A DNA stretch of 64,000 bases, taken from positions 96,001 through 160,000 of the forward strand of contig DASCPX010000129.1 in NCBI GenBank assembly GCA_036012755.1, in the 5' to 3' direction. The DNA is from Myxococcota bacterium (GTDB lineage: Bacteria > Myxococcota_A > UBA796 > CAJQPC01). This document shows, one piece after another, positions 27,879-57,379 of this stretch; the first letter of the stretch is position 1; every line of letters starts with the position of its first letter. Both the position numbers and the translations under genes were made by a program. Under the pieces are notes generated by a model. The model did not search any database. It was not told where the DNA came from and saw nothing but the letters and a program-made list of their open reading frames with translations.

Positions 27879-29129
27879 GTGTTGTTCCTGCTCTCCTGCA
27901 GCTGGTCTCCGACTCTCGTCGATGGCGTCAACAGCGTGGCTGTCGATGGCGTCGACGGGCTCTCCTGCACCCTCCGCGCAGACGAGCGCGAGGTCCACGA
28001 GGGCGTCGTCAACGAAGACGGCGAGTACAGACTCCACGGGCTGCTGGCCGAGGAGGTCTACGACTGCTCAGCTGGCGACGTGCTCTTCGAGGTGGAGACC
28101 GAGCCGCTGCCCGAGTGGATCCCGCCGATCACGCTGTCGGGTGACCCGGAGCTGAGCTCTGGCGCGTACACGCTGTTCTCCCACTTCGTCCAGGAACCTG
28201 GCACGGGCCACACGGAGCAGGTCCTGCTCATCGTCGACCGCGAGGGCCAGGTTCGCTGGTACCACCGGCTTCCTCCCGAGATCGGCGTGACGGACGCGAG
28301 CTACACGCCCGACGGCCAGGTGCTCTACGGGGGACGCAACGGGAGCCCCGCCATCGTCAGCCTCTCTGGGGAGAAGCTGTGGACCTGGGACATCGTCGGC
28401 CAGCACCACGACATCGAGATGCTGCCCTCTGGGCGGGTCGCGGCGCTCGTGTACGTGCAGTACTCGGACTACCTGGGCTTCGGCGTGAAGGTCGTCGACC
28501 CCGAGACCGACGAGCTCGAGTACTTCATCCAGGACAGCGAGTTGGAGCTGGAGCTCCCGGATGAAGTCGAGGACGACCGCGATCTCTTCCACGCCAACGC
28601 GCTCCATGTCGAGGAGCGCCACGGCGAGCTCGTCCGACTCTGGGTCAACCTCCAGCACACCTCCCAGCTCATCCGGATTCAGCCGCGGGACCGGGTCATC
28701 GACCTCGACGTCGGCCCCGACAGCGAGTGGACTATGGATGGGGACTGGTGGGAAGGCCCTCATGACCCCAAGTTCTCCGGGGATCGTGTCTTGTTCTTCG
28801 ACAACGGCAACGCCGAGCGCGGGACCCGGATCCAGGAGGTCCTCTTCGACGAGGACGACCTCCAGGCGGTCACCAGCTGGACCTGGTCGCCGGGCTGGTT
28901 CGAGGAGGTCTGGGGGGGCGTCGCCTACCTGCCGGACGACCACGTGCTCGTCGTGCGCGGCCACTGTCGGACCTGCACCTCAGAGGGGCAGAGCGCCTTG
29001 ATCGAGGTGGATCGACAGGGTGGAGTCGTCTGGCAGCTGGAGTTCGAGGAGCTCTCCGGTCTGTACCGGGCCCAGCCCCTGGGCGGATGTGACATCTTCC
29101 TCAACCGCCTCTACTGTCCCGAGGGATAG
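27879..29129 (+). CDS. Arylsulfate sulfotransferase-like beta-propeller lipoprotein
   Basis: DREGQVRWY, QHHD, FHANAL, PHD, FDNG; N-terminus MLFLLSC. Confidence 0.8.
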   Translation: MLFLLSCSWSPTLVDGVNSVAVDGVDGLSCTLRADEREVHEGVVNEDGEYRLHGLLAEEVYDCSAGDVLFEVETEPLPEWIPPITLSGDPELSSGAYTLFSHFVQEPGTGHTEQVLLIVDREGQVRWYHRLPPEIGVTDASYTPDGQVLYGGRNGSPAIVSLSGEKLWTWDIVGQHHDIEMLPSGRVAALVYVQYSDYLGFGVKVVDPETDELEYFIQDSELELELPDEVEDDRDLFHANALHVEERHGELVRLWVNLQHTSQLIRIQPRDRVIDLDVGPDSEWTMDGDWWEGPHDPKFSGDRVLFFDNGNAERGTRIQEVLFDEDDLQAVTSWTWSPGWFEEVWGGVAYLPDDHVLVVRGHCRTCTSEGQSALIEVDRQGGVVWQLEFEELSGLYRAQPLGGCDIFLNRLYCPEG

Positions 29130-29138
29130 AGTCCGGGC

Positions 29139-30443
29139 GTGCTGGCCCCCTTCCTGGCGTGCATTGGCAGCTCGGTCATCGACCGGACCCCTCCGAGCGC
29201 TCCGGTCACCAGCCTCGCCCTGGAGCCAGTCATCGTGCGGGCCTCCGGGACGCTCGTGTGCCGTCTCGCAGGAGAGCCCCACGAGCTCCACAGGGTCGCC
29301 GCCGTTGATGGTGTCTACGCTCTCCATGGCTTGCTGGCGGACTCCACCTACAGCTGCAACGTCGGCCTGGGCGAGCCCTTCGAGGTCACGACGGAGCCCC
29401 TGCCAGACTGGGTCCCGAGGCCTGTCGTCGGGGGGGATCCGGGGAGCAGCGAGGTCGGATACCTGCTGGCCCAGACCTTCTGGCAGGACGATGAGGATCG
29501 TGTGGGCCAGCCCGCGCTCGTGATCCTGGATCGCGAGGGACGTGTTCGCTGGTACCACGCCCTCGGCGAGGACTACGAGGCCGTCGACGCCAGCTACCTT
29601 GGTGACGGACGAGTGCTCTATGGCGGCAACGGTGGCCCTGTCCGAGAGGTCGACCTCTACGGTGAGCCGATCTGGGAGTCCTGGCAAGGCATCCATCACG
29701 ACGTCGAGGAGCTCCCGTCGGGCCTCGTCGCTGGCCTCATCGAGGCGCCACAGCCCGACTACATGGCCTTCGGCGTCGTGGTCTTCGACCCGAACACTGG
29801 CGAGGAGACCTGGCGCTGGGAGTCTCAGGACCACCTCGACACCTTGCCGCTGCCGGCGGAGCACTCCATCTACGACGTCTGGCACGCCAACTCCTTGCAG
29901 ATCGAAGAGGTCGACGGCGTCGTGGAGTCGGCCTGGATCAACGTCCGGAACCAGGACCTCATCCTTCGCATCGATCGCGACAGTGGCGACGTGGACCTGA
30001 GCATCGATCCCAGGGAGTGGTCGATCCAGAAGGCCGGCGGCGAGGACGCCGAGTGGTTCCACCAGCCCCACGACGTCCAGGTCCGTGGCCACGAGATCCT
30101 GCTCTACGACAATGGCTGGGTGGGTGGCTACAGCCGCATCATGGAGTTCGAGTTCGACGAGGACAGCCGCGTCGCGACGGGGACCTTCCAGTGGGGCGAG
30201 AGCTGGTACGAGTCCGTCTGGGGAGGCGTCGACGAGCTCGGCGGGGGACACCTCATCGTCGCTCGGGGCCACTGCACGGGCTGCCCCACGAAGGGGACCG
30301 GCGGGAGTCAGCTCATCGAGGTCGACCGCAGCGCCCACGAGGACGTCTGGCGCGTCCGCTTCGAAGAGGAGGGCGTCGGGCTCTACCGGGTCCGTCCCAT
30401 CGATGGCTGCTCGATCTTCAGCACCTCGCGCTACTGCGACTGA
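29139..30443 (+). CDS. Arylsulfate sulfotransferase-like lipoprotein (tandem paralog)
   Basis: DREGRVRWY, IHHD, WHANSL, QPHD, YDNG; N-terminus MLAPFLAC. Confidence 0.82.
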   Translation: MLAPFLACIGSSVIDRTPPSAPVTSLALEPVIVRASGTLVCRLAGEPHELHRVAAVDGVYALHGLLADSTYSCNVGLGEPFEVTTEPLPDWVPRPVVGGDPGSSEVGYLLAQTFWQDDEDRVGQPALVILDREGRVRWYHALGEDYEAVDASYLGDGRVLYGGNGGPVREVDLYGEPIWESWQGIHHDVEELPSGLVAGLIEAPQPDYMAFGVVVFDPNTGEETWRWESQDHLDTLPLPAEHSIYDVWHANSLQIEEVDGVVESAWINVRNQDLILRIDRDSGDVDLSIDPREWSIQKAGGEDAEWFHQPHDVQVRGHEILLYDNGWVGGYSRIMEFEFDEDSRVATGTFQWGESWYESVWGGVDELGGGHLIVARGHCTGCPTKGTGGSQLIEVDRSAHEDVWRVRFEEEGVGLYRVRPIDGCSIFSTSRYCD

Positions 30444-33400
30444 GCCAGGGGCGCTTCGCCCACCGTGAAGCGTCCTTGCTCGGTGCGGCCGAAGTTCTCC
30501 GGGCGGTACATCTCCTCGGCCGTCGCGGCCGGGTAGCTGTATTCGCCAGGGGTCGTGGCGCGGGCCACGTAGCTGTAGGTGTGGACGCCAGCTGGCATCC
30601 AGTCCGCGTAGAGCATGACCTGGTCGTCTCGGAGCTCCCGGTGGACGAAGACCCAGTCGCTCCACGTCGGGCTCTCGTCCGACCAGCCGGTGTCGTACCA
30701 ACCGCCGTAGTAGCCGTAGTAGCCGTAGCCGGTGTCCTGGAGCTCCCCGTCGCCCAGCGAGGACGCGGAGGTGGCGAAGAAGGTATCCACAGGCTCCAGG
30801 CCCGCTGGGAGCGGGCTGACGACCGCCACGTAGGTCCGGTCGATCGGCGTCGACACGCGGAGCTCGATCTCGACCATCGCGCCCGGGTCGACCTGGTCGG
30901 CCACACCGGCCCCCTCGATGATCGTCATCGTTCGCGTGACGGTGAAGCCCGCGTCCCGTGGCGGCATCTCGTCCATCCCATAGGCCAGTCGCAGCTCGTA
31001 GTACGCGCGCCCGTCCAGAGGTTGGATGGTGACGTCCTTCGAGTCGATACGGTCGATGGGCACCTCGTGCTGCAGCCACTCGCCGGGGGTGAGCTCCTCT
31101 TCGAGCAACAGCGCCCCGATCCTCACGCTGACGGCCCTTGCGGGGTCCCCTTCGTAGACCTCGGCGTAGGCCGAGAGCGCCTGGAAGCTGCGCAGGGTCG
31201 TATAGGTGTTGCCCCACCGGCCCTGGTTGCGGCCGGCGACGATGCCGTTGGCGAGCTTCGGCACGAGCGCGTGCTCGGGCTCGACCACCATGAGCGCGCG
31301 GAGGGCAGCCGCCGTCGGGGCCATGTCGCCGTCGAAGAGCGCGGCCCAGCGGGCCATGTCGTCGTCCTTCACGACGGCTCGGGTGGCCTCGACGAAGAGG
31401 TGGCCCTCGATCTGTCCCTGGAGCTCTGTCGTGCGAGCGTCCGGACCGCTCGTGCGGCCGATGGTCTCCATCAGCTCGAAGCGCCCCGTCAGCGACAGCT
31501 TGTCCCTGCGGTCCCACAAGGCCGAGTTCCAGCCGGGGTCACCCTCGCCAATGCGGGCGAGGGTCAGGGCCACGCGAGAGCGCGCGGACCACGTCGTCTC
31601 CTCCGCCCACCATGTCGGCGTCCAGCGGCCGTCCATGAAGTTGCGGAGGAAGCGCACGGTCTCCTCCGAGACTCCAGGCCCCACGCCTTGGAGCTGTGCG
31701 TGGTGAAGGACCTCGGCGAGGTGAGCAGTGGCCAGCACGGAGGGCTCCTTCTGGCCGGGCCAGTAGGCGTAGCCGCCGCTGGCGTGCTCGAAGAGCTCGA
31801 TGCGAGCGAGCCCGGCGTCGATCAACGCGTCGAGCTCCGCGGGGTCCCGGTCGAGTCCGGCCAGGTCACCGAGGTCCTTCGCCAGGATCGCGGCCAGCAG
31901 GCGCGAGGAGGTCTGCTCCAGGCAACCGTGGGGGTACTGGACGAGGTAGTCGAGGCTGGCGTCGGTGCCGACGAGGACGGTGTTCGAGATCTGGATGTCG
32001 AGCCCGCCGACGCCTGGTTGGGCGCCCTTGGGCATGGTGATGTGTTCAGTGACCTCGCCGGCCGAGGTCCCCGCGGTCGCGACGGTCTCCACCGGGATCG
32101 GTCGCTCGATCGGGATGGTCACCTCCACGCGGTCACGATCCGGTCCGGCCTCGACGTCGAAGGTGAAGACGGCCTCGCCAGGCTCCGGCTCCTGGAGCTC
32201 GAAGGCGACCTCGACGTTGCCCCGAGCTGGCACGGTGACGCTTGTGGTGCCATCGATCAGCTCCACGCCGACGGCCTCTGCGACGACCGCGACCTCGCGG
32301 TCCTCGTCCACGTTGTTGTGCACGACGATGCCGGCCCGGGCCCGGTCACCGACCCGCAACAGCCGCGGCAGGGCAGGCTGCGCGATGAGGGGTCGGCTGA
32401 CCTGGATCTCCCGCTCGGCGCTGCCGAAGCCCTCGGCCTCGTGGAGGACCACAGCCATGATCCTGAAGGTCGTGAGGTCGTCCGGCAGGGTGAAGGTCAC
32501 CCGGACCTTGCCCTCTGCGTCGGCCTCCAGATCCGGCTCCCAGAGGGGAGTCGTCTCGAAGCGTGAGCGCAGGGCGGGCCCGGAGTCGCCGCCGCCGCCG
32601 CCGGCTGGGGCGCCCTTGACCAGCAGCGCGCCGCGGTCGAGCACCTGCCGGCGGGAGTCGGCGGTGCGCACGTTCAAGGGATGGCTGCGCCAGTAGCGGT
32701 CGAAGGGATCCGGGGTCTCGTAGGCGGTCAGGCTGAGGACGCCGTGGTCGACGGCGTAGAGCACCACCTGGGCGCCCTCGGCAGGGCTGCCGTTGCGCGT
32801 GACCGAGACATCGACGGTGACATTCTGGCCGGGCTGGTACACCGAGTCGTCGCTCTCGATCGCGACGTCCAGGTGGCGACCCTCGGCGGAGACCTCGAGC
32901 TCGGTGTAGCCGAGGTGCCAGCTCGGCGTTCCGGCGTCCGGGGAGTCCGCGGGCGGCGCGCTCTCGGTGAGCAGGACGGAGACGAAGACGTTGGGTGCGG
33001 CCTGCTCCGTCAGCGGGATCTCGACGGTCTCGGCAGCGGTCGCCAGCTTCACGACGCGGCGATCGAGGATGCGCTCGCGTTCTACGGTGATCAGGGCGGT
33101 CATGCCCTCCTTCGGGGCCTTCACGAGCAGCTTGGCCGTGTCGCCCGGGGCGTAGCTGCGCTTGTCGGGGACGAGCTCGACGAGGTTGTCGTCTCCGCGC
33201 GCCCAGCTGGCGCCGGAGCCCGCGACGTAGAGGCCTGCTTCGCCCTTGCTGGTCCGGCCCTCGCTGTCCTTCGCGCTGGCGCTGATGACGTAGTAGCCGG
33301 CCTCCTTCGGTGTGAAGGGCACCTTCGCGGCGGTCTCCTCGGAGCTCACGGTTGCCGTCTCGACGGCCTCGTCGGTGGGCTCGCTCTCCCAGGTCCAGTA

Positions 33401-36091
33401 GCCGTCCATGCCTTTCTTCCGGACGACGTCCCAGGTGCGCCTGGAGATGACGACATCGACCGGCACCCCGGCCTGGACCGTGCCCTCGGGGCTCACCGTG
33501 ACGAACTCGAAGGCGGCGCCCTCACCGGCCCTGCCCAGACCGGTCGTGCTTCGGAGGCCCACGTAGAAGCTGGCTGGATGCACCAGCGTGTGGGCCCGGT
33601 TCGCGACCCGTTGGCGGGCGGAGTCGGTGACCTGGACCTCGAGCTCGACCTCGAGGGTTCGGGCCTCGTCGCTGACGGGGACCGTCACGGAGAAGGGGAT
33701 CGCGCCGGTGGCGTCCAGGACGCCCGTTCCCTCTGCGAGGGTCTCTATGCCCTGGTACTCACGCTCCCACCATCCCCTGCTCTCGTCGCCGGCGAAGGTG
33801 AAATCGTCCCAGCCCTCCGGGCGTGGGCGGACCTCTGAAGCGCGGGCGACCCAGCGGGCCTCTGCGCCTCCCATGGCAGCTCCAAAGAGGAAGTTGCCGG
33901 TACCGGTGGCCTCGAGCTCATCACCGGCGATGCCGTGCTCGTCGGCCGAGACCTCGACCCTGAAGCTCGGCGCCCGGTAGGTGTGCACAGGCACGCTCGC
34001 GTAGGTGCTGCCTTGCAGTCCGTCCTTCGTCGCGAACTCGATCGAGCAGCCGGCGGAGCCCATCGCCATCTCTTCCGGCAGCTCGACGTCGAAGGAGAGG
34101 TGGCCATCATCGACCGTTGCCGCTCCATCGAGGAGCACAGCCCCGCGCGCGTCGCTGCAGCTCCAGTTGGCTTCGGCCGGCACGATTGCGAGACCCTCGT
34201 GGTTGGCGAGGCGGGCGCTGGCGGCCACGTGAGCGGTGTCGCCTGGCTTGTAGACGCCGCGGTCGGTGAAGCTGAAGGTCCGCAGCTCGCGGTCATCGTC
34301 CGCGCTGCCGCTGTAGCTCAGGTCGAAGTCCCAGAGGTACAGATCGTGGGGGTTGTCGGAGCTGGTGATTGCCGTGTCGCCGTCGCTCTGGACGACGGCG
34401 AAGATCGGCTCGGACCAGTACCGCCAGCCGGGCTCGACGACATCGGTGGAGACGGCGAGGCCGTCATCGTCGGTCACCCCCGTCCAGATGTTCCTTCTGC
34501 CGCGCACCAGCGTGACCGTGGCGCCGGCGACGGGCTCGCCATCGGAGAGGCGCGTGACCCAGGTGGTGACGCCGGAGGGGCCGGCCTTGACAGTCGTGCC
34601 AAGGTCCGAGACCTGGAGCAGCGCCTTCTGGTAGTAGGCGCTGCCGTCGTAGCGCGTCACCGATGGGCTCGACGTCTCGACCAGCAGCAGGGTGTCGCCC
34701 CGCTCCAGCCATGGGGCGAGGTCGATCCTGTCGATGTGGATGCTGTCGTCCTTTGCGCGAGCCGTGAAGAGCTTCTCTGGCTTCGCGACCTTGCGGCTCC
34801 GCGAGTCCATCAGGTTCGAGCCGCCACCAAGGACCGCGATGACCTGGTCGACGGTCAGAGCCTTCACGCCGACGGAGAGCTCGGAGACGTTGCGGGTTCG
34901 AGCCGGGAGCTCGGTCGGGTTCGTCGACGGGTAGAGCTTGGGGCCGCTCGCGGCGTCGACCATCGGGTCCATGTGACCTGTCGTGAAGCTCCACTCCAGC
35001 GGGGTCGCGTACTCCTGGCCGTGGCTGTCCTTCCAGCCACCCTCGACCTTCACGGTGTACTCGGTCATCGGCTCCAGCCGGACTCCATGACTCCAGGTCC
35101 AGTAGCTGTAGGCCTCCGCGGGATCCCAGCCGTCCGGGGGTTCTGGGCTGATCGAGATCTTCGCTCCGAGCTCCGCGGCGTCCGTCACCGTCGCGAGCTC
35201 CAGGCGGATCGCCGTGTAGGGATCCACCTCCCTGCCCGTGGGTTGGTGATCGGCGATCCCCGGAGGTGGGTAGGTCGAGAACGACAGCTCGAGCTCGCTC
35301 CCGGTGCCGCGGGAGCCCTCCATCCCGGGCAGGCCGGCGGCCAGGACGAGCTGGTAGGACGTGTTCGGGGCAAGGGTCGCCTCGAGGAGCACGGCGCGCT
35401 CGAGCTCCTTGGGGATGCGCACGTCGTCGAGGCTCTCGGGCTCCGGGCGAGAGGCCGTGAACTGGATGGAGTTCCCGGAGGTGTCGGCGATCGTCGTGCG
35501 AACGCGCACTTCTTCGGGGTCGGTGGGCTGATCGAAGACCAGGAGGATCGGGTCCTCCGGGTTGGCCTGGTCGGTGCCCTCACGAGGCCAGGTGCGACGC
35601 AGTTCGGGTGGCGCGGTGTGGAAGGTCCAGCTGAGCGCTTTCTCCAGTGAGCTGCCGTCTGTGGCCACGGTGCCGGCGGGCACGCTGCAAGTGATGTTGG
35701 AGCTGCGGGGGAAGTGGCCGCCCTCGGGTGAGAAGACGGCTGTGGTGGTCCCTGCCCACCGGGCGAGGCCCTCGACGCTGTCGCAGGACAGCGGCACCGT
35801 CGCCTCGTCGATGCTCGTGAGCGCCGTGAGGGGCCTGTCGAAGACCACGATGGCTTGCATCGGTCGGGCCTGGTCGCCTGTCGGACCGACGAAGCCAACC
35901 TGCAGACCCGCGCCGACGTCGATCTCGCCGGCTGGCGAGAGGTCGCCTCGGCCTATTGGGAGGATCTCGGCGAAGAACGCGGCGGCCGGTTCCACCTCGA
36001 GCGCGCTCGCGGCAGCCTTCCGCTTGGGACCGAGTGTCCGGGTCTGGACGTCATCGTCGCCCCAGCACGCAAGGGCTAGCATGAGCAACAC
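30431..36091 (-). CDS. Alpha-2-macroglobulin family lipoprotein with Ig-like N-terminal domains
   Basis: TDRGVYKPG, LPDDLTTFR, thioester YPHGCLEQ, AEEMYRPE; GGAGG RBS before GTG. Confidence 0.95.
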   Translation of the reverse strand: MLLMLALACWGDDDVQTRTLGPKRKAAASALEVEPAAAFFAEILPIGRGDLSPAGEIDVGAGLQVGFVGPTGDQARPMQAIVVFDRPLTALTSIDEATVPLSCDSVEGLARWAGTTTAVFSPEGGHFPRSSNITCSVPAGTVATDGSSLEKALSWTFHTAPPELRRTWPREGTDQANPEDPILLVFDQPTDPEEVRVRTTIADTSGNSIQFTASRPEPESLDDVRIPKELERAVLLEATLAPNTSYQLVLAAGLPGMEGSRGTGSELELSFSTYPPPGIADHQPTGREVDPYTAIRLELATVTDAAELGAKISISPEPPDGWDPAEAYSYWTWSHGVRLEPMTEYTVKVEGGWKDSHGQEYATPLEWSFTTGHMDPMVDAASGPKLYPSTNPTELPARTRNVSELSVGVKALTVDQVIAVLGGGSNLMDSRSRKVAKPEKLFTARAKDDSIHIDRIDLAPWLERGDTLLLVETSSPSVTRYDGSAYYQKALLQVSDLGTTVKAGPSGVTTWVTRLSDGEPVAGATVTLVRGRRNIWTGVTDDDGLAVSTDVVEPGWRYWSEPIFAVVQSDGDTAITSSDNPHDLYLWDFDLSYSGSADDDRELRTFSFTDRGVYKPGDTAHVAASARLANHEGLAIVPAEANWSCSDARGAVLLDGAATVDDGHLSFDVELPEEMAMGSAGCSIEFATKDGLQGSTYASVPVHTYRAPSFRVEVSADEHGIAGDELEATGTGNFLFGAAMGGAEARWVARASEVRPRPEGWDDFTFAGDESRGWWEREYQGIETLAEGTGVLDATGAIPFSVTVPVSDEARTLEVELEVQVTDSARQRVANRAHTLVHPASFYVGLRSTTGLGRAGEGAAFEFVTVSPEGTVQAGVPVDVVISRRTWDVVRKKGMDGYWTWESEPTDEAVETATVSSEETAAKVPFTPKEAGYYVISASAKDSEGRTSKGEAGLYVAGSGASWARGDDNLVELVPDKRSYAPGDTAKLLVKAPKEGMTALITVERERILDRRVVKLATAAETVEIPLTEQAAPNVFVSVLLTESAPPADSPDAGTPSWHLGYTELEVSAEGRHLDVAIESDDSVYQPGQNVTVDVSVTRNGSPAEGAQVVLYAVDHGVLSLTAYETPDPFDRYWRSHPLNVRTADSRRQVLDRGALLVKGAPAGGGGGDSGPALRSRFETTPLWEPDLEADAEGKVRVTFTLPDDLTTFRIMAVVLHEAEGFGSAEREIQVSRPLIAQPALPRLLRVGDRARAGIVVHNNVDEDREVAVVAEAVGVELIDGTTSVTVPARGNVEVAFELQEPEPGEAVFTFDVEAGPDRDRVEVTIPIERPIPVETVATAGTSAGEVTEHITMPKGAQPGVGGLDIQISNTVLVGTDASLDYLVQYPHGCLEQTSSRLLAAILAKDLGDLAGLDRDPAELDALIDAGLARIELFEHASGGYAYWPGQKEPSVLATAHLAEVLHHAQLQGVGPGVSEETVRFLRNFMDGRWTPTWWAEETTWSARSRVALTLARIGEGDPGWNSALWDRRDKLSLTGRFELMETIGRTSGPDARTTELQGQIEGHLFVEATRAVVKDDDMARWAALFDGDMAPTAAALRALMVVEPEHALVPKLANGIVAGRNQGRWGNTYTTLRSFQALSAYAEVYEGDPARAVSVRIGALLLEEELTPGEWLQHEVPIDRIDSKDVTIQPLDGRAYYELRLAYGMDEMPPRDAGFTVTRTMTIIEGAGVADQVDPGAMVEIELRVSTPIDRTYVAVVSPLPAGLEPVDTFFATSASSLGDGELQDTGYGYYGYYGGWYDTGWSDESPTWSDWVFVHRELRDDQVMLYADWMPAGVHTYSYVARATTPGEYSYPAATAEEMYRPENFGRTEQGRFTVGEAPLAQSQ

Positions 36092-36126
36092 CGTGCACCT
36101 CCGAAGGGGGAGGATAGGGTACGGAG

Positions 36127-37239: not shown

Positions 37240-37245
37240 GGACGG

Positions 37246-37734
37246 TTAGTCGTCATCGACGGCAAGCTCCAGCTGCCAGTCCATCATGATGCCGACGTGG
37301 GCGTCCTCGACCGAGCCGTCGGGGCCGACGATGACCGTCGTCGGAAAGGTGTCGATGTCGTAGAGCGCCAGGGTCTCCTTGTCGCCGAGCAGGATCGGGT
37401 AGCGCATGTCGAGCTTCTTTCCGAAGGCCTTCAGCCCGGCTGGCGTACCGTCCGCTGCGATGCCGAGCACGGGTACGTCCGGGTGGTCGACGGCGAACTG
37501 GGAGAAGGTCGGGATCTCCGTCCGACAGGGCCCGCACCAGGTCGCCCAGAAGTTCAGGACCACGGTCTGGCCTTTGTAGTCGGACAGCGCGTGGGTCTCT
37601 CCGTCGACGTCCAGCAACACGAACTCGGGAGAGATCTCCGGCAGATCGGGCCCGGGGCGCAAGGCCGAGAAGGCCAGGTAGACAGCCGCCGCGATGGCGA
37701 TGCTGATGCCCCAGTCGCGGAGATAGCGCCACAT
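37246..37734 (-). CDS. TlpA/ResA-like thiol-disulfide oxidoreductase
   Basis: N-terminal TM; NFWATWCGPC; FPTT. Confidence 0.92.
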   Translation of the reverse strand: MWRYLRDWGISIAIAAAVYLAFSALRPGPDLPEISPEFVLLDVDGETHALSDYKGQTVVLNFWATWCGPCRTEIPTFSQFAVDHPDVPVLGIAADGTPAGLKAFGKKLDMRYPILLGDKETLALYDIDTFPTTVIVGPDGSVEDAHVGIMMDWQLELAVDDD

Positions 37735-37779
37735 ACTCTCTACGTATGCAGGATCGGGCCCTGCGGATACCCTCGCGGT

Positions 37780-38445
37780 GTGCTGTTGCTGTTTGCCTGC
37801 TCCGAGATCACCCCGATCGAGAGCGACGAGGACTTCACGAATCGCCTTCGCGACGAGGTCGCATCGCGCCTCACCGGGCACACGGTCGAACTCAGCGCCG
37901 AGCTCCAACTGAGCGTCACCGCACCCGACGGCTTCGAGCAGGAGCTCCACCTGGACTCTGTCCGAGCGGACTGCCTGAAGAGCCCTGATGGCTGCAAGCA
38001 GGCAGTGATCGCCTATGTCGATCGACAGGGGCGGATGGCCGAGGCCCGCTCCGAGCCCCTCCGCTTCGCGCTCTTGCGACCGATGCTCTTCAACGGCGGC
38101 GTCGCCCGCGCTCTCGAGCTGGAGCATCGCCCCTTCGTCGAGGACCTCGTCGTCGTGCTCGTCCTGGACAGCGACGACCGCACGCGCATCGTCGACACGA
38201 CCGAGCTTGCTTCCAGAGACTCCGACTTCGACACGGCGCTTTCCTACGCCATGGCCCAGCTGGGCACGGAGCCTCGCCGAGCTGCCGATCGCATGCTGGT
38301 CGCCGAGCTGTGGACCGACGAGTGCGTGAGGCCACTGTCCCCGGATTTGCTGTTGCTCGACGGGGAGCCCGAGCCGGCCTTGGAAGCTCCGAAGCTCTCC
38401 GAGCACCGCTTCTGTTGGCGAGGATCGAGCTGGATTCGGCTATGA
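37780..38445 (+). CDS. Putative lipoprotein, DUF1444-like (possibly truncated)
   Basis: MLLLFAC; LRPML, RPFVEDLVVVLVLD...AMAQL pattern. Confidence 0.5.
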   Translation: MLLLFACSEITPIESDEDFTNRLRDEVASRLTGHTVELSAELQLSVTAPDGFEQELHLDSVRADCLKSPDGCKQAVIAYVDRQGRMAEARSEPLRFALLRPMLFNGGVARALELEHRPFVEDLVVVLVLDSDDRTRIVDTTELASRDSDFDTALSYAMAQLGTEPRRAADRMLVAELWTDECVRPLSPDLLLLDGEPEPALEAPKLSEHRFCWRGSSWIRL

Positions 38446-38473
38446 ACCGGTGCTTCCAGACGTTCTCGTGCAC

Positions 38474-43136: not shown

Positions 43137-43961
43137 TTACTCCGAGGCCGGATCCGGAGCGGCCACCGGCAGGCGGACGAGCCGGGTCTGGCCATTCTCT
43201 CGGTAGAGCAGCCACCCCTCGCTGCGCGATGGCCCGCGTTGGTGTCCGGGCCCATCGACACCGAAGCCGTCCGAGCAGGCGATGTCGACGTCCTCGCCAT
43301 TCCAGCTCTCCCAGCAAGCCACGTCCCCGTCGAGGCTGAGCCCACGCGCCGTGTGGGCGTCCGTCCACGTGCACTGCTTCATGGCGCCGACGCGCTGCAG
43401 GCAGACGCGCTCATCGTCGAGCCAGGCGATGGTGGGTCCGTCCGCCGACACGTGGCGGCCCTCGGCCCACTGCACGGCGGCGCCGTCCTCTGGGGCCATC
43501 ATCACGACCTCGTCCTCGACCCAGGCCACGAAGCCGTCGCCGATCGCGGGGGCTCGCCACGGCGTCGGGGCTGCCTCGATCGACTCTCGGGTGTTCCCGT
43601 CGAGGATCTCGATGGACACGGGGGTGGTGACGACCGCCCGCTGGCCGTCCGTCGAGAAGGGCCCGATGGCTTCCACCGGGCTGGGCTTGTCGGTGGGTGT
43701 GCCGCTCGGCAGGTGCCACCAGCCCGCGGCTCCGATGAGCACGCCGTCGGCCAGGCCCGGGGAGTCCACGGCTCGCTCGAGCTCGACCTGCTGTCCCGTC
43801 TCGAGGTTCACCGCTCGGTTGACCGGGCCGCCGAAGCAGCCGACCGCCCAGTCTCCGGCCAGCGCGGGATAGCGAGCGTCACGACAGGTACCCCCCAGCC
43901 ACGGCAAGGAGGTCCTCTCCGTCGCCAGGGCGGGGGACAACGACAGGAGGGCGAGGATTAC
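43137..43961 (-). CDS. Secreted beta-repeat (propeller-like) protein
   Basis: Signal-like ILALLSLSPALA; repeated P.I.G..VAW motifs. No canonical start precedes the signal (GTA/ATC). Confidence 0.6.
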   Translation of the reverse strand, partial: VILALLSLSPALATERTSLPWLGGTCRDARYPALAGDWAVGCFGGPVNRAVNLETGQQVELERAVDSPGLADGVLIGAAGWWHLPSGTPTDKPSPVEAIGPFSTDGQRAVVTTPVSIEILDGNTRESIEAAPTPWRAPAIGDGFVAWVEDEVVMMAPEDGAAVQWAEGRHVSADGPTIAWLDDERVCLQRVGAMKQCTWTDAHTARGLSLDGDVACWESWNGEDVDIACSDGFGVDGPGHQRGPSRSEGWLLYRENGQTRLVRLPVAAPDPASE

Positions 43962-45349
43962 TCCTCTTCCTCGCAGTAGGCGCCTGTGTCCTCGCTGACG
44001 CCGCAGCAGGTCACGGTGATGATGGCCGTGGCCTCTGTGGACTCGCCCGTGCAGTCCGAGACGGTCAGCTTGAGCTCGTACTCGTTGCTGTCGCAGACCC
44101 CGGGCTCGGTGGCCTCTGCGTCCTCGAGCTTGAGGAAGGTCACGAGCGAGGTGTCGTCCGTGAAGGTGCCGTTGCCGGTGACCAGCTCCCACTGGTAGGT
44201 CAGCGGGTCGCTGTCGGCGTCGGTGACCGTCACGTCGGTCCCGATCTCGAGCGTCTGGTCCGTGCAGTCGTCGCAGTTGAAGACGTAGCCGCTCGGCGAG
44301 CAGCACGAGAGCCCCGCGTCGATGGTGTCGGGCGTCGGGAAGTTCACGACTGGGAGCGCGTTGGAGAGGCGCTCCTCGAGGACGAGGGTGATGAGGTCCG
44401 GGATCGACCAGTTGTTTCCGTCGGAGACCGTCAGCGACAGCACGTAGGTGCCCGCCACGTCCCCGTAGAAGGTCGCGTCCCCATCGGTCCGGGCGGAGAA
44501 GTTCGCGTTGGTCGCGGCGCTCTCCGCCGGCTTGTTCTGGAGCTCCCAGAAGAACGACAGCTCGTCGTCGTCCGGATCGACCGAGCCGGAGCCGTCCAGC
44601 GCCACGTGCGTGCAGTCGTAGGAGGTGATGTCCTCGCCCGCGCTGGCGGTCGGTGCACCGTCTTCTCCGGTGACGGTCACGACCGTCGAGTCGGCGAGTC
44701 CGCAGCTGTAGTCGTTGCAGACCAGGAGGTTGAAGACGAAGACGCCCCGCTCGTCGGGGGTGAAGCTGGCGGTCTCCGCTGTGGCGTCGGTGATGTCTGC
44801 GTCGGTGAGGGCCGACTTGTCGGGCCACTGCTCCAGCGACCAGCCGTAGGTCAGGCCCTTGCCCAGCGGGTCGTAGGAGGCTGATCCGTCCAGCGTGAGG
44901 GTGGTGTCGACCTCTGTGGTCTGGTCAGCACCCGCGTCGGCGACCGGGAGATCCTCCGGCAGCATGGCCTCGACGACTGCGAAGTCGGTGGCGGACCAGA
45001 GCTTGGAGTCGTTGACGGACAGGGCGACGACGTAGGTGCCGACCTTGTCCGGGCTGAAGCAGACCGTCACCGCCGTGGGGCTGTTGTTCGGCGCGAAGCT
45101 GTCCTCGTTCACCGCGGAGCCCTCCGGCACCCACTCGAAGGTCCACTTGTAGGACAGGGCGTCCCCGTCCGGATCGTGGCTCTTGGAGCCGTCCAGGCAG
45201 ACCTGTTGGTCGGCGTAGAGGGCCTGATCCTCGCCAGCGTCGGCGGTCGGGGCGTCGTTGGTCTCGACGATGCCGCTGTCAGGGTTGTCCTTGTTGCAGG
45301 CGACGAGCATGAGCCCAGCCGCGAGCGCCATCGGGATGGTGGTGCGCAT
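43958..45349 (-). CDS. PKD-repeat lipoprotein
   Basis: Lipobox LVAC; three to four PxAxAG.D...LDGS.S.DPDGD.L.Y.W repeats. Confidence 0.88.
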   Translation of the reverse strand: MRTTIPMALAAGLMLVACNKDNPDSGIVETNDAPTADAGEDQALYADQQVCLDGSKSHDPDGDALSYKWTFEWVPEGSAVNEDSFAPNNSPTAVTVCFSPDKVGTYVVALSVNDSKLWSATDFAVVEAMLPEDLPVADAGADQTTEVDTTLTLDGSASYDPLGKGLTYGWSLEQWPDKSALTDADITDATAETASFTPDERGVFVFNLLVCNDYSCGLADSTVVTVTGEDGAPTASAGEDITSYDCTHVALDGSGSVDPDDDELSFFWELQNKPAESAATNANFSARTDGDATFYGDVAGTYVLSLTVSDGNNWSIPDLITLVLEERLSNALPVVNFPTPDTIDAGLSCCSPSGYVFNCDDCTDQTLEIGTDVTVTDADSDPLTYQWELVTGNGTFTDDTSLVTFLKLEDAEATEPGVCDSNEYELKLTVSDCTGESTEATAIITVTCCGVSEDTGAYCEEEE

Positions 45350-45357
45350 GGGGTCTC

Positions 45358-46764
45358 CTATTTGCCTTCGCCAGTGCATGTGATGGTCAGCCGTACGGTG
45401 TCTGTGTCGCTGGCGTTGCAGTCGGCCACGAGGAGCTCCAGGTCGTACTCGTAGGTCGCTCCGCTGTTGTAGACACCCGGCAGCGGCGGGGTCTGGACCG
45501 TGGTGGCGGCGGTGTACTCGGAGTCGATCGTCATCTCGCCGGTGGCCTCGGTCCAGCGGTAGGACAGCTGGTCGCCGTCTGGATCGAGTGAACCCGAGCC
45601 GTCCAGGTCGAACTCGAAGGAGGGGCAGTCCTCGCAGTTCCAGCCGCTGTAGCTGAGGCGCTCGCAGTCCGTGGTCGACGAGACGCTGTCCGCGGCGCCC
45701 GCGTTGGCGATGGGCGGCTCGTTCTCCGTGATGTCCGAGGTGGTCATCGTGACGACGTCGGGGGCCGACCACTGCGAGCCGTCGAAGACCTGCAGCTGGA
45801 AGGTGTAGTCCCCCGGGACATCCCAGGTGAAGGTCGCGTTGGGCAGGGTCGCGTCGTCGAAGTTCGCGTCCGTCGCGGTGGACTCGGCAGGGGCGGTGAC
45901 CAGCGACCACTGGTAGGTCAGCTCAGCTCCGTCGGGGTCCCAGGAGCCGTAGCCGTTGAGCGTCAGCTCGTTTCCGTCGCAGGGCGGCGCCTCGTCGGCG
46001 TCACCGGCGTCCGCGATGGGGGCGGCGTCGCCTTCGCTGCAGCTCACCGAGGCGTAGTCCGGCTCGGACCACTGGAAGCCATCGGAGACGACCAGGGAGA
46101 CGACGAAGACGCCTTCGCAGTCGCAGATGAGCGACGGTGTCGCCGTGCCCTGGTTGTAGAGGTCATCGCTCTCGAGCTCCGAGCAGTCGGGCGAGGACGA
46201 CAGCGCCCAGTCGAACTCGATCTCCTCGCCCTCTGGATCCGAGGAGCCGGAGCCGTCGAGGGTCACCCGGGTGTCGACCGAGGTGTCGTGATCCGGGCCC
46301 GCGTCGGCGATCGGTCTGGCGTCGCCGGGTGCGACGTCGATGATGACGATGTCCGGCTCGGAGCTCTCGAGGTCGTCGCTGACGACCAGCGCGAGCACGT
46401 AGGTGCCTGCGACATCCGGGACGAAGCTGGTCGCGACCGCTGTCGCCCCGTTGTTGTCGGTGAGCGCGACTTCGTCCACGATCGAGGCGGTCGGGACGGA
46501 CTCGAAGCTCCAGGCGTAGGCCGGAACGAACTTGTCCTGGGCGCAGCCTTCCGGGTAGCCGCTGGGGCCAAGCCCGTTCTCTTCGTCGATCTGGTCGCCC
46601 GAGAGCTCCGCCGTGACGCCGAGAGAAAGTGACTGGTCGGCGCCGGCGTATGCCACCGGCGCGCAGTAGGGATCGCCCGTGTCCACGTCCTTGTCGCAGC
46701 CCGCTGACAACAGCAGCGAGGCACCGATCAAGCCGAGGAGGGGCTTTCTGGTCTGGTCGAGCAT
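45358..46764 (-). CDS. PKD-repeat lipoprotein (paralog)
   Basis: Lipobox SAGC; four PKD-like repeats. Confidence 0.88.
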   Translation of the reverse strand: MLDQTRKPLLGLIGASLLLSAGCDKDVDTGDPYCAPVAYAGADQSLSLGVTAELSGDQIDEENGLGPSGYPEGCAQDKFVPAYAWSFESVPTASIVDEVALTDNNGATAVATSFVPDVAGTYVLALVVSDDLESSEPDIVIIDVAPGDARPIADAGPDHDTSVDTRVTLDGSGSSDPEGEEIEFDWALSSSPDCSELESDDLYNQGTATPSLICDCEGVFVVSLVVSDGFQWSEPDYASVSCSEGDAAPIADAGDADEAPPCDGNELTLNGYGSWDPDGAELTYQWSLVTAPAESTATDANFDDATLPNATFTWDVPGDYTFQLQVFDGSQWSAPDVVTMTTSDITENEPPIANAGAADSVSSTTDCERLSYSGWNCEDCPSFEFDLDGSGSLDPDGDQLSYRWTEATGEMTIDSEYTAATTVQTPPLPGVYNSGATYEYDLELLVADCNASDTDTVRLTITCTGEGK

Positions 46765-49064: not shown

Positions 49065-49097
49065 GGGTGAACTCCGCCCTCGGAGCCTATCAGGCGC

Positions 49098-50465: not shown

Positions 50466-50483
50466 GGTCCCGAGGATACCCGC

Positions 50484-53275: not shown

Positions 53276-53313
53276 CGGAGACGTCCTATCACAGGGGCTT
53301 TGCACCGGGTGCG

Positions 53314-53343
53314 TTGACGCTCACCCTCGGGCAGCCATACGCT
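53314..53343 (+). promoter_or_regulatory. Sigma70-type promoter
   Basis: TTGACG-N18-TACGCT, then AAGGAGAGG RBS before ATG 53368. Confidence 0.7.
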
Positions 53344-53367
53344 GCTGCCGGTTCCAAGGAGAGGCCC

Positions 53368-53715
53368 ATGCTCGTCCTGCTCATGTCGCTGACTGGTTGC
53401 GGTCCGAACTGCCAGTCGACCTGCCAGCGTCTCTACGGTGACGGAGTTCAGACCGTCAACGGCGAGCAACAAGAGGACTGCGGGATCGAACGCGCGGGTC
53501 GGAAGAGCAACGACCTCGTCGACACCTGCATGGAAGAGTGCGACGACGCGCTGGACACACCCGGCGAGATGGGCCCCTACGATCCGTACACGCGGACCGG
53601 CTCCAACGAGTCAGTCGACCTCGACAACGAGCGCCAGGCGGCCATCTGGATGCAGTGCGTCGCCGAGACCAGCTGCGACCGCCTCACGGAGGGCTACTGC
53701 GCGCCGGTCTGGTAG
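53368..53715 (+). CDS. Small Cys-rich lipoprotein
   Basis: MLVLLMSLTGC followed by 8 Cys; strong RBS. Confidence 0.8.
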   Translation: MLVLLMSLTGCGPNCQSTCQRLYGDGVQTVNGEQQEDCGIERAGRKSNDLVDTCMEECDDALDTPGEMGPYDPYTRTGSNESVDLDNERQAAIWMQCVAETSCDRLTEGYCAPVW

Positions 53716-53732
53716 GGGTTAGTCGAGCCCCG

Positions 53733-53999
53733 ATGTTCTTCCTCAGCTTGCTGTGGGGCTGCAACGCCACCTGCTCCCAGGCCTGCAAGCGCCTGCTGGA
53801 GTGCGACGCCGTGGACACCACCGGCGTCGAGCGCGACCTCTGCGAGGAGACCTGCCGCGTGCAGGAGCAGACCTACGAAGACTGGGAGGACGAGGACCTC
53901 CAGGAGCGCTTCGACGAGGCCCGCAACTGCATCCGCGATTCGACCTGCGCGGACATCGCGGACGGTGTCTGCTACGACGAAGAGCTGTTTCCCTACTGA
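53733..53999 (+). CDS. Small Cys-rich lipoprotein (paralog)
   Basis: MFFLSLLWGC followed by 8 Cys in the same pattern. Confidence 0.78.
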   Translation: MFFLSLLWGCNATCSQACKRLLECDAVDTTGVERDLCEETCRVQEQTYEDWEDEDLQERFDEARNCIRDSTCADIADGVCYDEELFPY

Positions 54000-54003
54000 A
54001 GAC

Positions 54004-54975
54004 GTGAGACTGCTCTTCCTCCACACCGGCGGCACCCTCGGCATGAAGGGGGAGCCCGGCCCGCTGGAACCAGAGGACTACGAGGAGACCGTCCTTCCCT
54101 TCGTCCGGGGCCTCGAGGAGCTCGGCGAGATCGAGCACCGGTTCCTCTGCAACATCGACAGCTCCGACATGGATCCGACCCGCTGGCAGGACATCGCTCG
54201 GACGGTCGCAGAGAACATCGACACCTACTGTGGCTTCGTCGTGCTCCACGGCACGGACACGATGGCTTACAGCGCGGCAGCCTGCGCCCTGTTGCTGGAG
54301 AACCTCCCCAAGCCGGTGGTCTTCACCGGAGCCCAGCGGCCGATCCACCAGCTGCGCAGCGACGGACGCCAGAACCTCATCCACGCGACCATCTGCGCCA
54401 CCCGCGACGTTCCAGAGGTCGCCGTCTACTTCGACGGCAAGCTCCTGCGCGCCTCGCGGACCACGAAGTACTCGGTCCAGAGCTACTCGGCCTACCGCTC
54501 CCCGGGCACCCCTCCGCTGATGACGATGGGCGCTGACATCCTGCAGCCGCTGGTGCCCAGGCGCCCACGCGGGCCCTTTCGCCTGCGGTCCGGCTTCGAG
54601 CGTCACGTCGCGGTCCTGACGCTCTTTCCGGGCATCGAGTCGCGGGTGCTCGACGCGGTCGTCGACGGCGGAGCGCGTGGGGTCATCCTGCGCTCGTTCG
54701 GCGCGGGCAACGTTCCCTTGATGGGGTGGCCAGAGGCCGTCGCCCGAGCCCGGGCCGCCGGGGCGGTGGTCATCGTCGCCACCCAGTGCGTGGAGGGAAG
54801 GGTGGAGCTCGGTCGCTACGCTGGCTCGGCGGCCGTGCTCGACGCGGGTGCCCTGAGCGCAGCCGACATGACGCTCGAGGGTGCCCTCACGAAGACCATG
54901 TTCCTCCTGGCCCAGGACGAGGCCTTCGAGGAGTCCTGGCCCCACGATCTGGCAGGCGAGGTCTCACCGCACTGA
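54004..54975 (+). CDS. ansA: Type I (cytoplasmic) L-asparaginase
   Basis: TGGTLGM, IDSSD, HGTDTMAY, FGAGN. Confidence 0.9.
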   Translation: MRLLFLHTGGTLGMKGEPGPLEPEDYEETVLPFVRGLEELGEIEHRFLCNIDSSDMDPTRWQDIARTVAENIDTYCGFVVLHGTDTMAYSAAACALLLENLPKPVVFTGAQRPIHQLRSDGRQNLIHATICATRDVPEVAVYFDGKLLRASRTTKYSVQSYSAYRSPGTPPLMTMGADILQPLVPRRPRGPFRLRSGFERHVAVLTLFPGIESRVLDAVVDGGARGVILRSFGAGNVPLMGWPEAVARARAAGAVVIVATQCVEGRVELGRYAGSAAVLDAGALSAADMTLEGALTKTMFLLAQDEAFEESWPHDLAGEVSPH

Positions 54976-55278
54976 GGCGAGGAAGCTCCGGTGGGCGTCC
55001 GTCGTCTCCGCGTGGGGGCTGCCTGTCGTGCTCCCGCGGAGCCCCGGAACCCCAGTGCTGTCGAGCTCCGCTCCGGCGTGGCAGTGGGCGCAGCCGTCGT
55101 GGAGGAAGGCCTCCAGTCCAGCGAGCTCCCCGGCGCTCAGGCTGTCCTCGCCAGCGAGCCAGCGGTCGAAGCGGGTGTCTCCGGCCGGGGCGAAGACCTT
55201 CGTCGCCCGCTCGCGCAGGTCCGGCTCGCGGTGGGTCTCCTCGACGTCTCCGGAGCAGGCGATCAGCAAGATCAGCAA
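54964..55278 (-). pseudogene. Di-heme cytochrome c peroxidase remnant
   Basis: Lipoprotein N-terminus joined to TRFDRWLAG..LS..EL.GL..F...GCAHCH (second-heme region); only 104 aa. Confidence 0.7.
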
Positions 55279-55796: not shown

Positions 55797-55805
55797 CCCG
55801 GCAGT

Positions 55806-56576
55806 CTACCCGCGGCCGATGAGCCCCTCGATGGGCGAGGACGCAGTCGCGTAGAGCTTCTTCGGGATGCGGCCGGCTTCGAAGGCCATGCGCCCGGCCT
55901 CGGTCGCCGCTCTCATCGCGCCAGCCATCTTCAGGGGGTCCTTCGCGGCAGCGATGGCCGTGTTCATGAGCAGCCCGTCGACCCCGAGCTCCATCGCGAT
56001 GGCGGCGTCGCTGGCGGTCCCGACCCCGGCGTCCACGATGACCGGGACCTTCGCCGCGTCGAGGATCAACGCCAGGTTGTAGGGGTTTCGGATGCCGAGA
56101 CCCGAGCCGATGGGCGCCGCCAGCGGCATGACGGCCGCGCAGCCGATGTCCTCGAGCTTCCTGCAGACGATCGGGTCGTCCAGGCAGTAGGGCATCACGG
56201 TGAAGCCGTCCTCGCAGAGCACGCGAGCGGCCTCCAGGGTCCCCTCGTTGTCGGGGAAGAGCGTCTTCGGATCTCCGATGACCTCGAGCTTCACGAGCTC
56301 TGTGCCCAACAGCTCCCGCGCGAGACGGGCCGTGACGATGGCCTCTTCCGCCGTGAAGCAGCCCGCCGTGTTGGGCAGGATGAGGATCCTGTCCCGATCT
56401 ATGAAGTCCAGGATGTTGTGGCCCTTGGCCGCCGTGAGGTCGACCCGGCGCACCGCGATGGTGACCATGGCCGTCCCAGTGGCCTCGTGACAGGCCTGCA
56501 TCTCAGGAAAGTCCTTGTACTTTCCGGTGCCTACGATGAGTCGCGAAGAGAGGGTGTGGGAGCCGATCTGGAGCAT
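55806..56576 (-). CDS. thiG: Thiazole synthase
   Basis: [32 protein letters not shown]. Confidence 0.97.
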
Positions 56577-56595
56577 GGCGCGCACCTAACGCGGC

Positions 56596-57379
56596 TCAGA
56601 GCTCGGTGACGTTCACCCGGGTCGCGAAGCTCCATCCCGAATCCGCCGTCAACGACGCCGTGCCGCTGTAGACATCGCTGGTGCCGTAGCCCCCCTGGAC
56701 CGTGAGATCCCGTACGTCCACCTCGATGTTCTCTCCGTCCACCTCGATCACCGTGCCGAGGTCTCCGCCATCGAGGGTCACGCGCATCGCGTCACCGCTG
56801 TCGCTCTTGACGACCACGCTGCCCGAAAACAGCAGGTTCACGTAGAAGGTGCCGTCGCAGAAGACCAGCTCGCCCTCATCGCTGAAGGTCGCCGTCGCCG
56901 GGGCGTCTGCGGTCCCTGTCAGGGCCGCGGTCTGGTCCGTCGGGCTTCCGTCTGTGTCGAGCCAGACCGCCGTGTTCGTGTCGACGTCTTCGTCGCAGTC
57001 ATCCGGGTTGTCCGCGTAGCCGGGGCAGCTCACAGGCGCTCACGGTGCCCTCGCCCCCGTAGCCGTCTCCGTCGCTGTCCTCGTAGTAGGTCGTGCCGTC
57101 GATGGGGTCGTCGTCCGGCACCCCGTCACAGTCGTCGTCGATGTCGTTGCAGATCTCGTCGGCGTCGGGGTTCACCAGCTCCCTGCCGTCATCGCAGTCG
57201 CTGCCGTCGCTGAGGTAGCCGTCGGGCATCTCGCAGTCGTCGTTGGTCGTGTCGGGATCGCCGAAGCCGTCGCCGTCAGCGTCGGCGTACCACTCTACGG
57301 CGCAGCCGACGTCCCCGCTGTCTCCCGAGTCGGTCCCGGGTGGTGTCTTGGTGCAGGCGAGAGCCAGGACAACGAGCAT
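56596..57379 (-). pseudogene. Acidic Cys-repeat (putative metal-binding motif) lipoprotein, frameshifted/truncated
   Basis: MLVVLALAC; WYADADGDGFG, DCDD...EICNDIDDDCDG; frame switch near 57020-57030 (ELP / GYADNPDDC). Confidence 0.75.

Follow-up and report, generated by a model that had tools for sequence, protein, structure and literature searches.

A stretch of 64,000 nucleotides (nt) from the genome of a Myxococcota bacterium (the window; positions 96,001 to 160,000 of contig C129, DASCPX010000129.1) encodes eight predicted lipoproteins whose signal peptides are reduced to a short, uncharged hydrophobic leader followed directly by a lipobox cysteine. In lipoprotein precursors, this Cys is usually required at residue 15 to 35 (PROSITE rule PS51257). 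The canonical lipoprotein signal comprises a positively charged n-region, a hydrophobic h-region, and the lipobox (reviewed in PMC9360617). The assembly that includes the window (GCA_036012755.1) spans 6.73 Mb in 250 contigs, with a GC content of 68% and a completeness of 96%. Genes were called with a codon log-odds model trained on long open reading frames (ORFs) with a high GC content at third codon positions (GC3), yielding 5775 genes, and all N-termini are quoted with GTG and TTG start codons read as Met. The original prediction had listed eight such N-termini and proposed that the Sec, Lgt, and LspA machinery of this lineage accepts signals of this length, or that another route is used. 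Translation of the window reproduced all eight as they had been written, four of them starting with GTG, three with ATG, and one with TTG.

The eight genes encode proteins of diverse kinds. At 27879..29129 (+), a gene with a codon score of 191 and a GC3 of 0.89 encodes a 416-amino-acid (aa) ASST-like lipoprotein, a beta-propeller of the arylsulfotransferase family, that begins MLFLLSC from a GTG (PF05935, E-value of 2.9e-10). Its 434-aa paralog is located at 29139..30443 (+) and begins MLAPFLAC, likewise from a GTG (PF05935, E-value of 7.4e-20). The 1886-aa protein encoded at 30431..36091 (−) begins MLLMLALAC from a GTG and matches 10 Pfam families, including bMG10, A2M_BRD, A2M, bMG3, MG2, and TED; it has the MG domains, the bait region, the CxEQ thioester domain (CLEQ at residue 1390), and the C-terminal MG10 domain that define a bacterial alpha-2-macroglobulin. 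A 221-aa lipoprotein without a known family (MLLLFAC, GTG) is encoded at 37780..38445 (+), 45 bp from a divergent TlpA-like gene; the ORF antisense to it is spurious in that part, with a codon score of 5 versus 54 on the plus strand. Two small Cys-rich lipoproteins are encoded at 53368..53715 (+; 115 aa, MLVLLMSLTGC, ATG) and 53733..53999 (+; 88 aa, MFFLSLLWGC, ATG, GC3 of 0.93), the first of which belongs to a family (GCGPNCQSTCQRLYG...) that lacks a Pfam entry and is encoded by 39 of the 41 genomes compared within the order. The last two genes are on the minus strand and encode a 104-aa CxxCH (c-type cytochrome-like) lipoprotein (54964..55278; MLILLIAC, TTG) and a Cys-rich lipoprotein with the MopE motif (56999..57379; MLVVLALAC, ATG; PF11617 below the cut-off).

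All eight ORFs score as coding in the codon model, with GC3 values of 0.84 to 0.93, and in every case the lipobox [LVI][ASTVI][GAS]C places the Cys at position +1 of the mature protein. The Cys is at residues 7 to 11, short of the usual signal length. No Lys, Arg, Asp, or Glu is present between the Met and the Cys of any of the eight, so that the basic n-region is absent and, with no Arg in any leader, so is the RR motif of twin-arginine translocation (Tat) signals. Two of the loci have further features. The TTG start of the cytochrome-like gene overlaps the TGA of a thiE-like gene (TTGCTGA, 55272-55285, −), an arrangement that suggests possible translational coupling of a thiamine gene with an envelope cytochrome. 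The MopE-motif ORF (56999-57379) overlaps a second minus-strand ORF (56596-57033) by 35 nt in a different frame, and the MopE repeat motif runs across the junction; a frameshift or an assembly error probably splits what is a single gene at 56596-57379 (−). This metal-binding, Cys-rich repeat of the MopE-like kind has undergone a very large expansion in the order, a 126-aa query matching at least 36 to 117 places in each of 41 genomes.

The starts at 27879 and 29139 had been described as impossible to extend, which was borne out: the GTG at 27879 directly adjoins the TGA of an upstream AHSA1-domain gene, and an in-frame TAG is located three codons before 29139. Read-through of this TGA, which would yield a long RR-containing signal, was dismissed as the upstream ORF encodes a complete AHSA1/SRPBCC protein (Pfam match to residues 13-120 of 133). 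The RRQF sequence ahead of 27879 is not a Tat signal because it is in the C-terminus of the AHSA1-domain protein, with the TGA in between. Four other genes have open upstream codons that include no ATG, GTG, or TTG, numbering 51 for the gene at 36091 (−), 63 for 37780, 139 for 55278 (−), and 208 for 57379 (−). The nearest alternative start for 53733 is a GTG 26 codons upstream, within the preceding gene. The ribosome-binding sites claimed for the genes at 36091 (−), 53368, and 55278 (−) are indeed present as GGAGGT (36097-36102), AAGGAG (53356-53361), and CAGGAG, 5 to 6 nt ahead of the start. Two genes have a TANNNT hexamer beginning at −12, which is TAGAGT (29127-29132) at 29139, where the TAG is the stop of the preceding gene, and TACCCT (37768-37773) at 37780; this box is absent from the other six lipobox genes of the window. 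A scan of 27400-38500 for strict sigma-70 promoter and terminator consensus sequences, which are poorly suited to DNA of 69% GC, returned zero promoters and zero terminators. In total, seven of the eight short N-termini have no credible longer start, and the one at 53368 is ambiguous.

Short leaders are not a local cluster of the window. Genes were assigned to the short class if their most upstream ATG, GTG, or TTG is located 5 to 12 codons before a lipobox Cys. The genome-wide histogram of Cys positions that had been suggested as a check revealed 432 such genes, with a sharp peak at 7 codons before the Cys. Genome-wide, the Cys is at residue 6 to 13, with a mode of 8, and 415 of the 432 genes have no charged residue between the start and the Cys. 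The pattern is present at 410/5660 (7.24%) of first start codons, versus 187/86431 (0.216%) of internal in-frame start-like codons, and because of this 33-fold excess it is far above chance. The leader consensus is M-L-L-L-L-L-A-C, with Leu at −3 in 70% and at −2 in 62% of the leaders, and is followed by Thr/Ser/Gly and a stretch rich in Pro, Asp, and Glu. Leaders of a similar kind but of the signal peptidase I (SPase I) type are also common (e.g., M-L-L-L-I-G-L-A-V-A, then Q-D). The short form accounts for about three quarters of the lipoprotein candidates of the genome. Canonical signals persist, with 99 candidates that are canonical only, among which twin-arginine lipoprotein signals were recognized by eye. 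Among genes pinned by a stop within 5 codons upstream, 133 lipobox proteins lack Lys or Arg and 53 have it, versus 23 and 57, respectively, for proteins with long transmembrane-like N-termini. The loss of the n-region is thus specific to cleaved signals.

The sequences surrounding the short starts were analyzed genome-wide. An in-frame stop is present within 3 codons upstream of 136/432 short starts, within 10 codons of 216/432, and directly adjacent to 17. Shine-Dalgarno matches of at least 4 nt precede 56% of the short starts, with a spacing peak at 4 to 7 nt, versus 36% of internal start-like codons, for which the spacing is flat. The leader codons have a GC3 of 0.86, close to the 0.87 of the mature part, whereas the in-frame stretch from −30 to −13 has a GC3 of 0.59 and no periodicity; because GC3 rises at the proposed start codon, coding appears to begin there. 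In-frame stops exactly 3 codons upstream are in sharp excess (92/432) because a TANNNT hexamer, mostly TAGnnT, begins at −12. This hexamer is present at exactly −12 in 16.4% of the short-lipobox starts, versus at most 0.5% at most offsets from −15 to −23 (range, 0 to 0.9%). A stop at −12 to −10 occurs in 516 genes genome-wide, 48% of which have a T at −7, versus 14% of controls, and only 53 of 230 TANNNT cases represent the end of an upstream gene. No −35 signal accompanying the hexamer was found.

We know of no previous description of a leaderless-mRNA signature in this lineage. In other bacteria, TANNNT is reported to precede leaderless starts by about 12 bp (Zheng et al. 2011, PMC3160421). 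In this genome, the box at −12 precedes 31% of the short-lipobox genes, 14% of the genes without a hydrophobic N-terminus, and 7% of the canonical lipoprotein genes. Its frequency among ORFs pinned by an upstream stop is 6.8% here and 6.1% in other genera of the same family, versus 1.3%, 0.4%, and 2.1% in three outgroup sets. Many short-signal genes carry a leaderless-type signature, a feature that the original prediction had not noted, and are putatively transcribed without a leader. A search for sequencing runs that cover 28201-38200 of the window listed none from RNA. A leaderless transcript encodes nothing 5′ of the start codon, and such an mRNA could thus specify no longer signal. The start-site signals indicate that the short starts are, in all likelihood, genuine translation starts, and mis-called starts are largely excluded.

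To place these N-termini in context, orthologs were compared across 40 relatives (41 genomes with our own), where f1 denotes the family of the window and f2 to f7 denote other families of the same order. All 12 alpha-2-macroglobulin orthologs in f1 begin with Met, Val, or Leu and 7 to 10 uncharged residues, followed by the Cys, whereas all five orthologs from f2, f3, and f4 have Lys or Arg (MRS..., MRR..., MKPR...). For the ASST-like family, 14 of 16 N-termini in f1, judged by eye, allow uncharged leaders only, and in the other two, which share a genome, a longer start that includes Arg is an option as well; leaders in the three outgroup members are longer, and two of these contain Arg. The ortholog of the 29139 protein in the closest relative (G002) begins MWLLGLAC, and that of the 55278 (−) protein begins MLMLLLSC from an ATG. 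The 37780 protein is confined to the genus, where its orthologs begin MWLLLIAC and MWMILLAC, one of them with a stop 3 codons upstream. In the orthologs of both the 37780 and 55278 (−) proteins, the Cys is kept 6 to 7 residues from the start. The original prediction stood to fall if homologs started further upstream or lacked the Cys, and neither was the case for the alpha-2-macroglobulin, the ASST-like pair, or the 37780 and 55278 (−) proteins.

To estimate how widely the trait is distributed, samples of 40 to 220 kb from 16 relatives were analyzed with the same pipeline, and a canonical start was given priority wherever one was possible. This scheme replaced a first classification that gave too many ambiguous cases compatible with both a canonical and a short start. 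Under it, our genome has 683 short signals, of which 426 are unextendable, and 214 canonical ones. The corresponding counts, which come from small samples and include related genomes that are not independent, are 40 short and 29 canonical in five other genera of f1, 12 and 25 in f4 and f7, 3 and 38 in f2, f3, and f5, and 2 (none of them unextendable) and 20 in other orders of the class. The trait shows a clear gradient, being strongest in f1, weaker in two sister families, and near the background of the method elsewhere. It is also mosaic from gene to gene. As this mosaicism is found within ortholog families, relaxed constraint fits better than a single switch.

The composition of the short leaders differs from that of canonical ones. 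From −6 to −2, the mean Kyte-Doolittle hydropathy is 3.04 for the short leaders (55% Leu), versus 2.63 (43% Leu) for the canonical leaders of the same genome and 2.44 (37% Leu) for those of the outgroups. Positions +2 to +15 of the short class comprise 14 to 25% Asp or Glu and 3 to 9% Lys or Arg. The greater hydrophobicity may compensate for the missing charge.

The original prediction called for divergent or duplicated secA, secY, lgt, or lspA genes to be looked for. In a survey of the export and lipidation machinery, copy numbers and family scores proved ordinary. The genome encodes two LspA, five Lgt, and one Lnt, with an lspA-lspA-lgt-lgt operon at C59:100000-102591 and three further lgt genes on contigs C203, C40, and C127. 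Every family of the order has 1 to 2 copies of LspA and 3 to 6 of Lgt, including those with normal signals, and one genus with a strong trait has a single LspA. A trait-specific duplication of lspA or lgt was dismissed as normal-signal families have as many copies. One copy each was found of SecA, Ffh, TatC, and Lnt, all with full family scores, and SPase I is present in three copies. SecY is single-copy in 37 of the 41 genomes searched and present in more than one copy in none. Its alignment with E. coli SecY covers 413 residues (E-value of 6e-132; 55% identical by eye), and identity across families is 61 to 70%. A divergent SecY was likewise dismissed, there being one discriminating alignment column only. 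The survey, which included no systematic search for additional factors, yielded no sign of the other route that had been proposed, and acceptance of very short signals by ordinary Sec, Lgt, and LspA is the part of that proposal that stands as the best-supported reading.

Further genes of the window have, or were thought to have, signals of related types. Two had been put forward as SPase I analogues, and one of them stood. The gene at 63185..63766 (+) encodes a Peptidase_C92 protein (PF05708, E-value of 9.6e-26, from residue 16) that starts with ATG behind 19 open upstream codons without a start; its leader, MFIALISLVHSAEPALA, followed by DGD, is an SPase I-type signal without an n-region, and four of four orthologs likewise lack an n-region with Lys or Arg. 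The other, the gene at 43137..43958 (−), did not hold up as described. It encodes a protein without a known family, and its signal-like stretch, ILALLSLSPALA, has no ATG, GTG, or TTG ahead of it. To obtain ILALLSLSPALA, translation would have to begin at an ATC sharing bases with the stop (TAA) of the upstream PKD gene; a TTG at 43940 is the first canonical start and cuts off most of the hydrophobic stretch. The ortholog in the closest relative (G002) has a GTG start that gives MHGVGLLLLTVAGAADD; the gene in the window may use a non-canonical start (ATC or CTG) or be coupled to the upstream stop. The two PKD-domain lipoproteins encoded at 43958..46764 (−), which had been named as canonical comparators, do have basic signals, MRTTIPMALAAGLMLVAC and MLDQTRKPLLGLIGASLLLSAGC. 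A 162-aa TlpA/AhpC-like thioredoxin with a CGPC site (37246..37734, −, with its start at 37734) has an uncleaved N-terminal membrane anchor that keeps its basic residues (MWRYLRDW...). In addition, a 126-aa ORF without a Pfam match at 20605-20985 (+) may have another very short leader, with a Cys at residue 4.

It is probable, on this evidence, that the short N-termini are the genuine starts of genuine lipoprotein precursors and that the ordinary Sec/Lgt/LspA/Lnt pathway handles minimal signals with a dispensable n-region. We infer that the short-leader proteins are exported, lipidated, and cleaved. The signal would be cut down to the Met, a Leu-rich core of 4 to 7 residues, and the lipobox, with the n-region and its charge gone. 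The ordinary targeting and translocation machinery (SecYEG with SecA or the signal recognition particle [SRP]) would recognize the very hydrophobic stub, Lgt would attach diacylglycerol to the Cys, LspA would remove the leader of 6 to 10 residues, and Lnt would add the third acyl chain. In f1, the loss of the n-region may be offset by the extra hydrophobicity of the h-region together with an acidic, Pro-rich mature N-terminus. The n-regions would have been lost gene by gene as the start shifted to a codon inside the old h-region. A new −10 box arising 12 nt before an internal ATG or GTG would yield a truncated but translatable leaderless transcript and, in a family in which leaderless mRNAs seem to be common, may have aided this loss; one base change can be enough to create a TAnnnT box and a new start (De Groot et al., PMC4007540). 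The cargo families, which include the alpha-2-macroglobulin, PKD-like proteins, the CxxCH cytochrome, Cys-rich MopE repeats, and TlpA neighbors, are of periplasmic or surface type and thus support export. A broader reading is that the clade has in effect replaced the Sec signal rule for cleaved signals, of SPase II and SPase I type alike, such that the n-region is dispensable, a Leu-rich stub of 6 to 7 residues is the default, and erosion of the signal proceeds alongside a shift to leaderless transcription; we regard it as possible but on the whole doubtful.

Several observations weigh against an ordinary pathway that handles minimal signals. The net charge after the Cys is similar in the two classes (−2.1 for short and −1.9 for canonical signals), so that the acidic end is not specific to the short class. 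The 214 canonical-looking lipoprotein signals, counted under a scheme that favors canonical starts, remain in the genome. The gene at 53368 also has a TTG 18 codons upstream (53314) that would give an n-region with Lys-Glu-Arg, and its family is mosaic: 10 of 16 orthologs in f1, including both relatives from the same genus, keep an n-region with Lys or Arg (VRK or MR type), and 6, this genome counted, are uncharged. The gene caller was home-made, and positions −1 and −3 are set by the lipobox filter, which partly builds in the leader consensus there. Finally, one column in transmembrane helix 10 (TM10) of SecY is Ser in the strong-trait genera and in the family of the window and Gly in the outgroups. 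This column aligns with E. coli V411, three residues after the conserved pore-ring I408, and a small adaptation of the machinery is therefore possible, SecA, Ffh, LspA, and Lgt having been compared by copy number or family score.

The SecY column also bears on a reading in which export of the short signals depends on a component that is adapted or extra, such as a SecY, SecA, or SRP variant with relaxed, prlA-like proofreading, a special Lgt or LspA paralog, unusual membrane lipids, or an undescribed targeting factor. The change would then affect the machinery as well as its substrates. We consider this unlikely. A clade-specific and graded trait is what heritable permissiveness of the host would be expected to produce, and the Ser/Gly difference near the Ile aligned with I408, as well as the two LspA and five Lgt genes, could be its trace; however, the numbers of LspA and Lgt are matched in normal-signal families, a single LspA suffices in one strong-trait genus, SecY is otherwise conserved, and SecA, Ffh, TatC, and Lnt are unremarkable in copy number and score. 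Canonical and short signals, moreover, coexist in one genome and even in one ortholog family. It is highly improbable that the true starts are located upstream at non-canonical codons (CTG, ATC, ACG, etc.), or are masked by a frameshift or an assembly error, and that the signals are of normal length. Such starts could be imagined for the gene at 43958 (−), which lacks a canonical start and has a CTG six codons further upstream that would supply an Arg-Gly-Arg n-region, and for 53368 with its upstream TTG; in addition, a Shine-Dalgarno sequence read in frame gives Arg and Gly codons just upstream of the start, resembling remnants of an n-region. The nearby or adjacent in-frame stops, the onset of coding GC3 at the proposed start, and the positions of the Shine-Dalgarno sequence and the −10 box all fit the short start instead, and relatives assembled independently show the same short starts. 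We give equally little credence to the possibility that translation of the stubs yields N-termini without an export function, with the proteins remaining cytoplasmic or tethered to the inner leaflet. A core of 6 to 7 residues is shorter than the hydrophobic cores studied in model signals, and export of the short-leader proteins is deduced from their sequences, both of which count in its favor. It is opposed by the conservation of the lipobox consensus and the invariant Cys, by sister-family orthologs that have full canonical signals at the same position, and by the periplasmic or surface type of the cargo families, as documented for alpha-2-macroglobulin in PMC4498604.

The preferred reading, in which ordinary machinery processes minimal signals, can be set against several known systems. 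The short leaders resemble the SPase II signals of the E. coli Lpp type in their lipobox, L-(A/S)-(G/A)-C, their invariant +1 Cys, the core directly before it, and the kinds of cargo, and Lgt, LspA, and Lnt are all encoded here. They differ in that the n-region and its charge are missing, the Cys is at residue 7 to 13 (mode, 8), and the core has more Leu; they are also no rare exception but the majority class of this genome. Work by Inouye, Kendall, Mizushima, and Silhavy reportedly established that a more hydrophobic core can make up for lost N-terminal charge and that SecY variants can tolerate a defective signal. The trade-off between charge and hydrophobicity in engineered neutral or poly-Leu signals of E. 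coli is the same as that seen in the natural leaders here. The engineered signals, however, are changes made to individual proteins of a host in which the charge is normally needed, whereas the short form is the natural default of a whole clade. Compared with the prlA (secY) suppressors, such as prlA4 I408N, the SecY encoded here keeps the pore-ring Ile and differs from the outgroups at one nearby column. The alpha-2-macroglobulin encoded at 36091 (−) has the same domain set and thioester motif as E. coli ECAM/YfhM, but its leader is uncharged, with eight residues before the Cys; ECAM is described as an inner-membrane-anchored protein of the periplasm whose 22-residue signal was removed for expression (PMC4498604).

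As in the leaderless genes described for Actinobacteria and Deinococcus-Thermus, TANNNT is located at −12, no −35 signal is present, and ATG and GTG starts are about equal in number (PMC3160421; Deinococcus deserti, PMC4007540). In contrast to those genes, the lineage here is of deltaproteobacterial type, Desulfuromusa/Thermodesulfobacteriota-like by its SecY matches (apart from one close relative, 50 to 58% identical and including Alphaproteobacteria as well), the signature is a sequence-based prediction, and the box precedes short-signal lipoprotein genes at double the rate seen for genes that lack a hydrophobic N-terminus. In a literature search that mostly did not extend to subscription journals, no report of ultrashort uncharged signals used genome-wide was found.

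Every predictor assumes a basic n-region and a minimum length, as do the textbook models in which SecA, SRP, SecY, and the membrane set the orientation of the precursor. If, in one clade, some three quarters of the lipoprotein candidates do without a basic n-region, the n-region rule would not be a physical necessity, and the natural minimal signals of the clade can be used for tests with reporter fusions. The counts of the secretome, lipoproteome, and surface proteins of these marine or sediment metagenome-assembled genomes are probably large underestimates, and such genes will often be given wrong starts by gene callers with a preference for longer ORFs. The coupling to leaderless starts suggests a simple route for the evolutionary shrinkage of N-terminal targeting signals. 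If the Sec signal rule has indeed been rewritten in this clade, no other natural signal peptides in routine use would be as short as its leaders, most of its envelope proteins would escape standard predictors, and the clade would provide a natural system for probing the actual role of the n-region.

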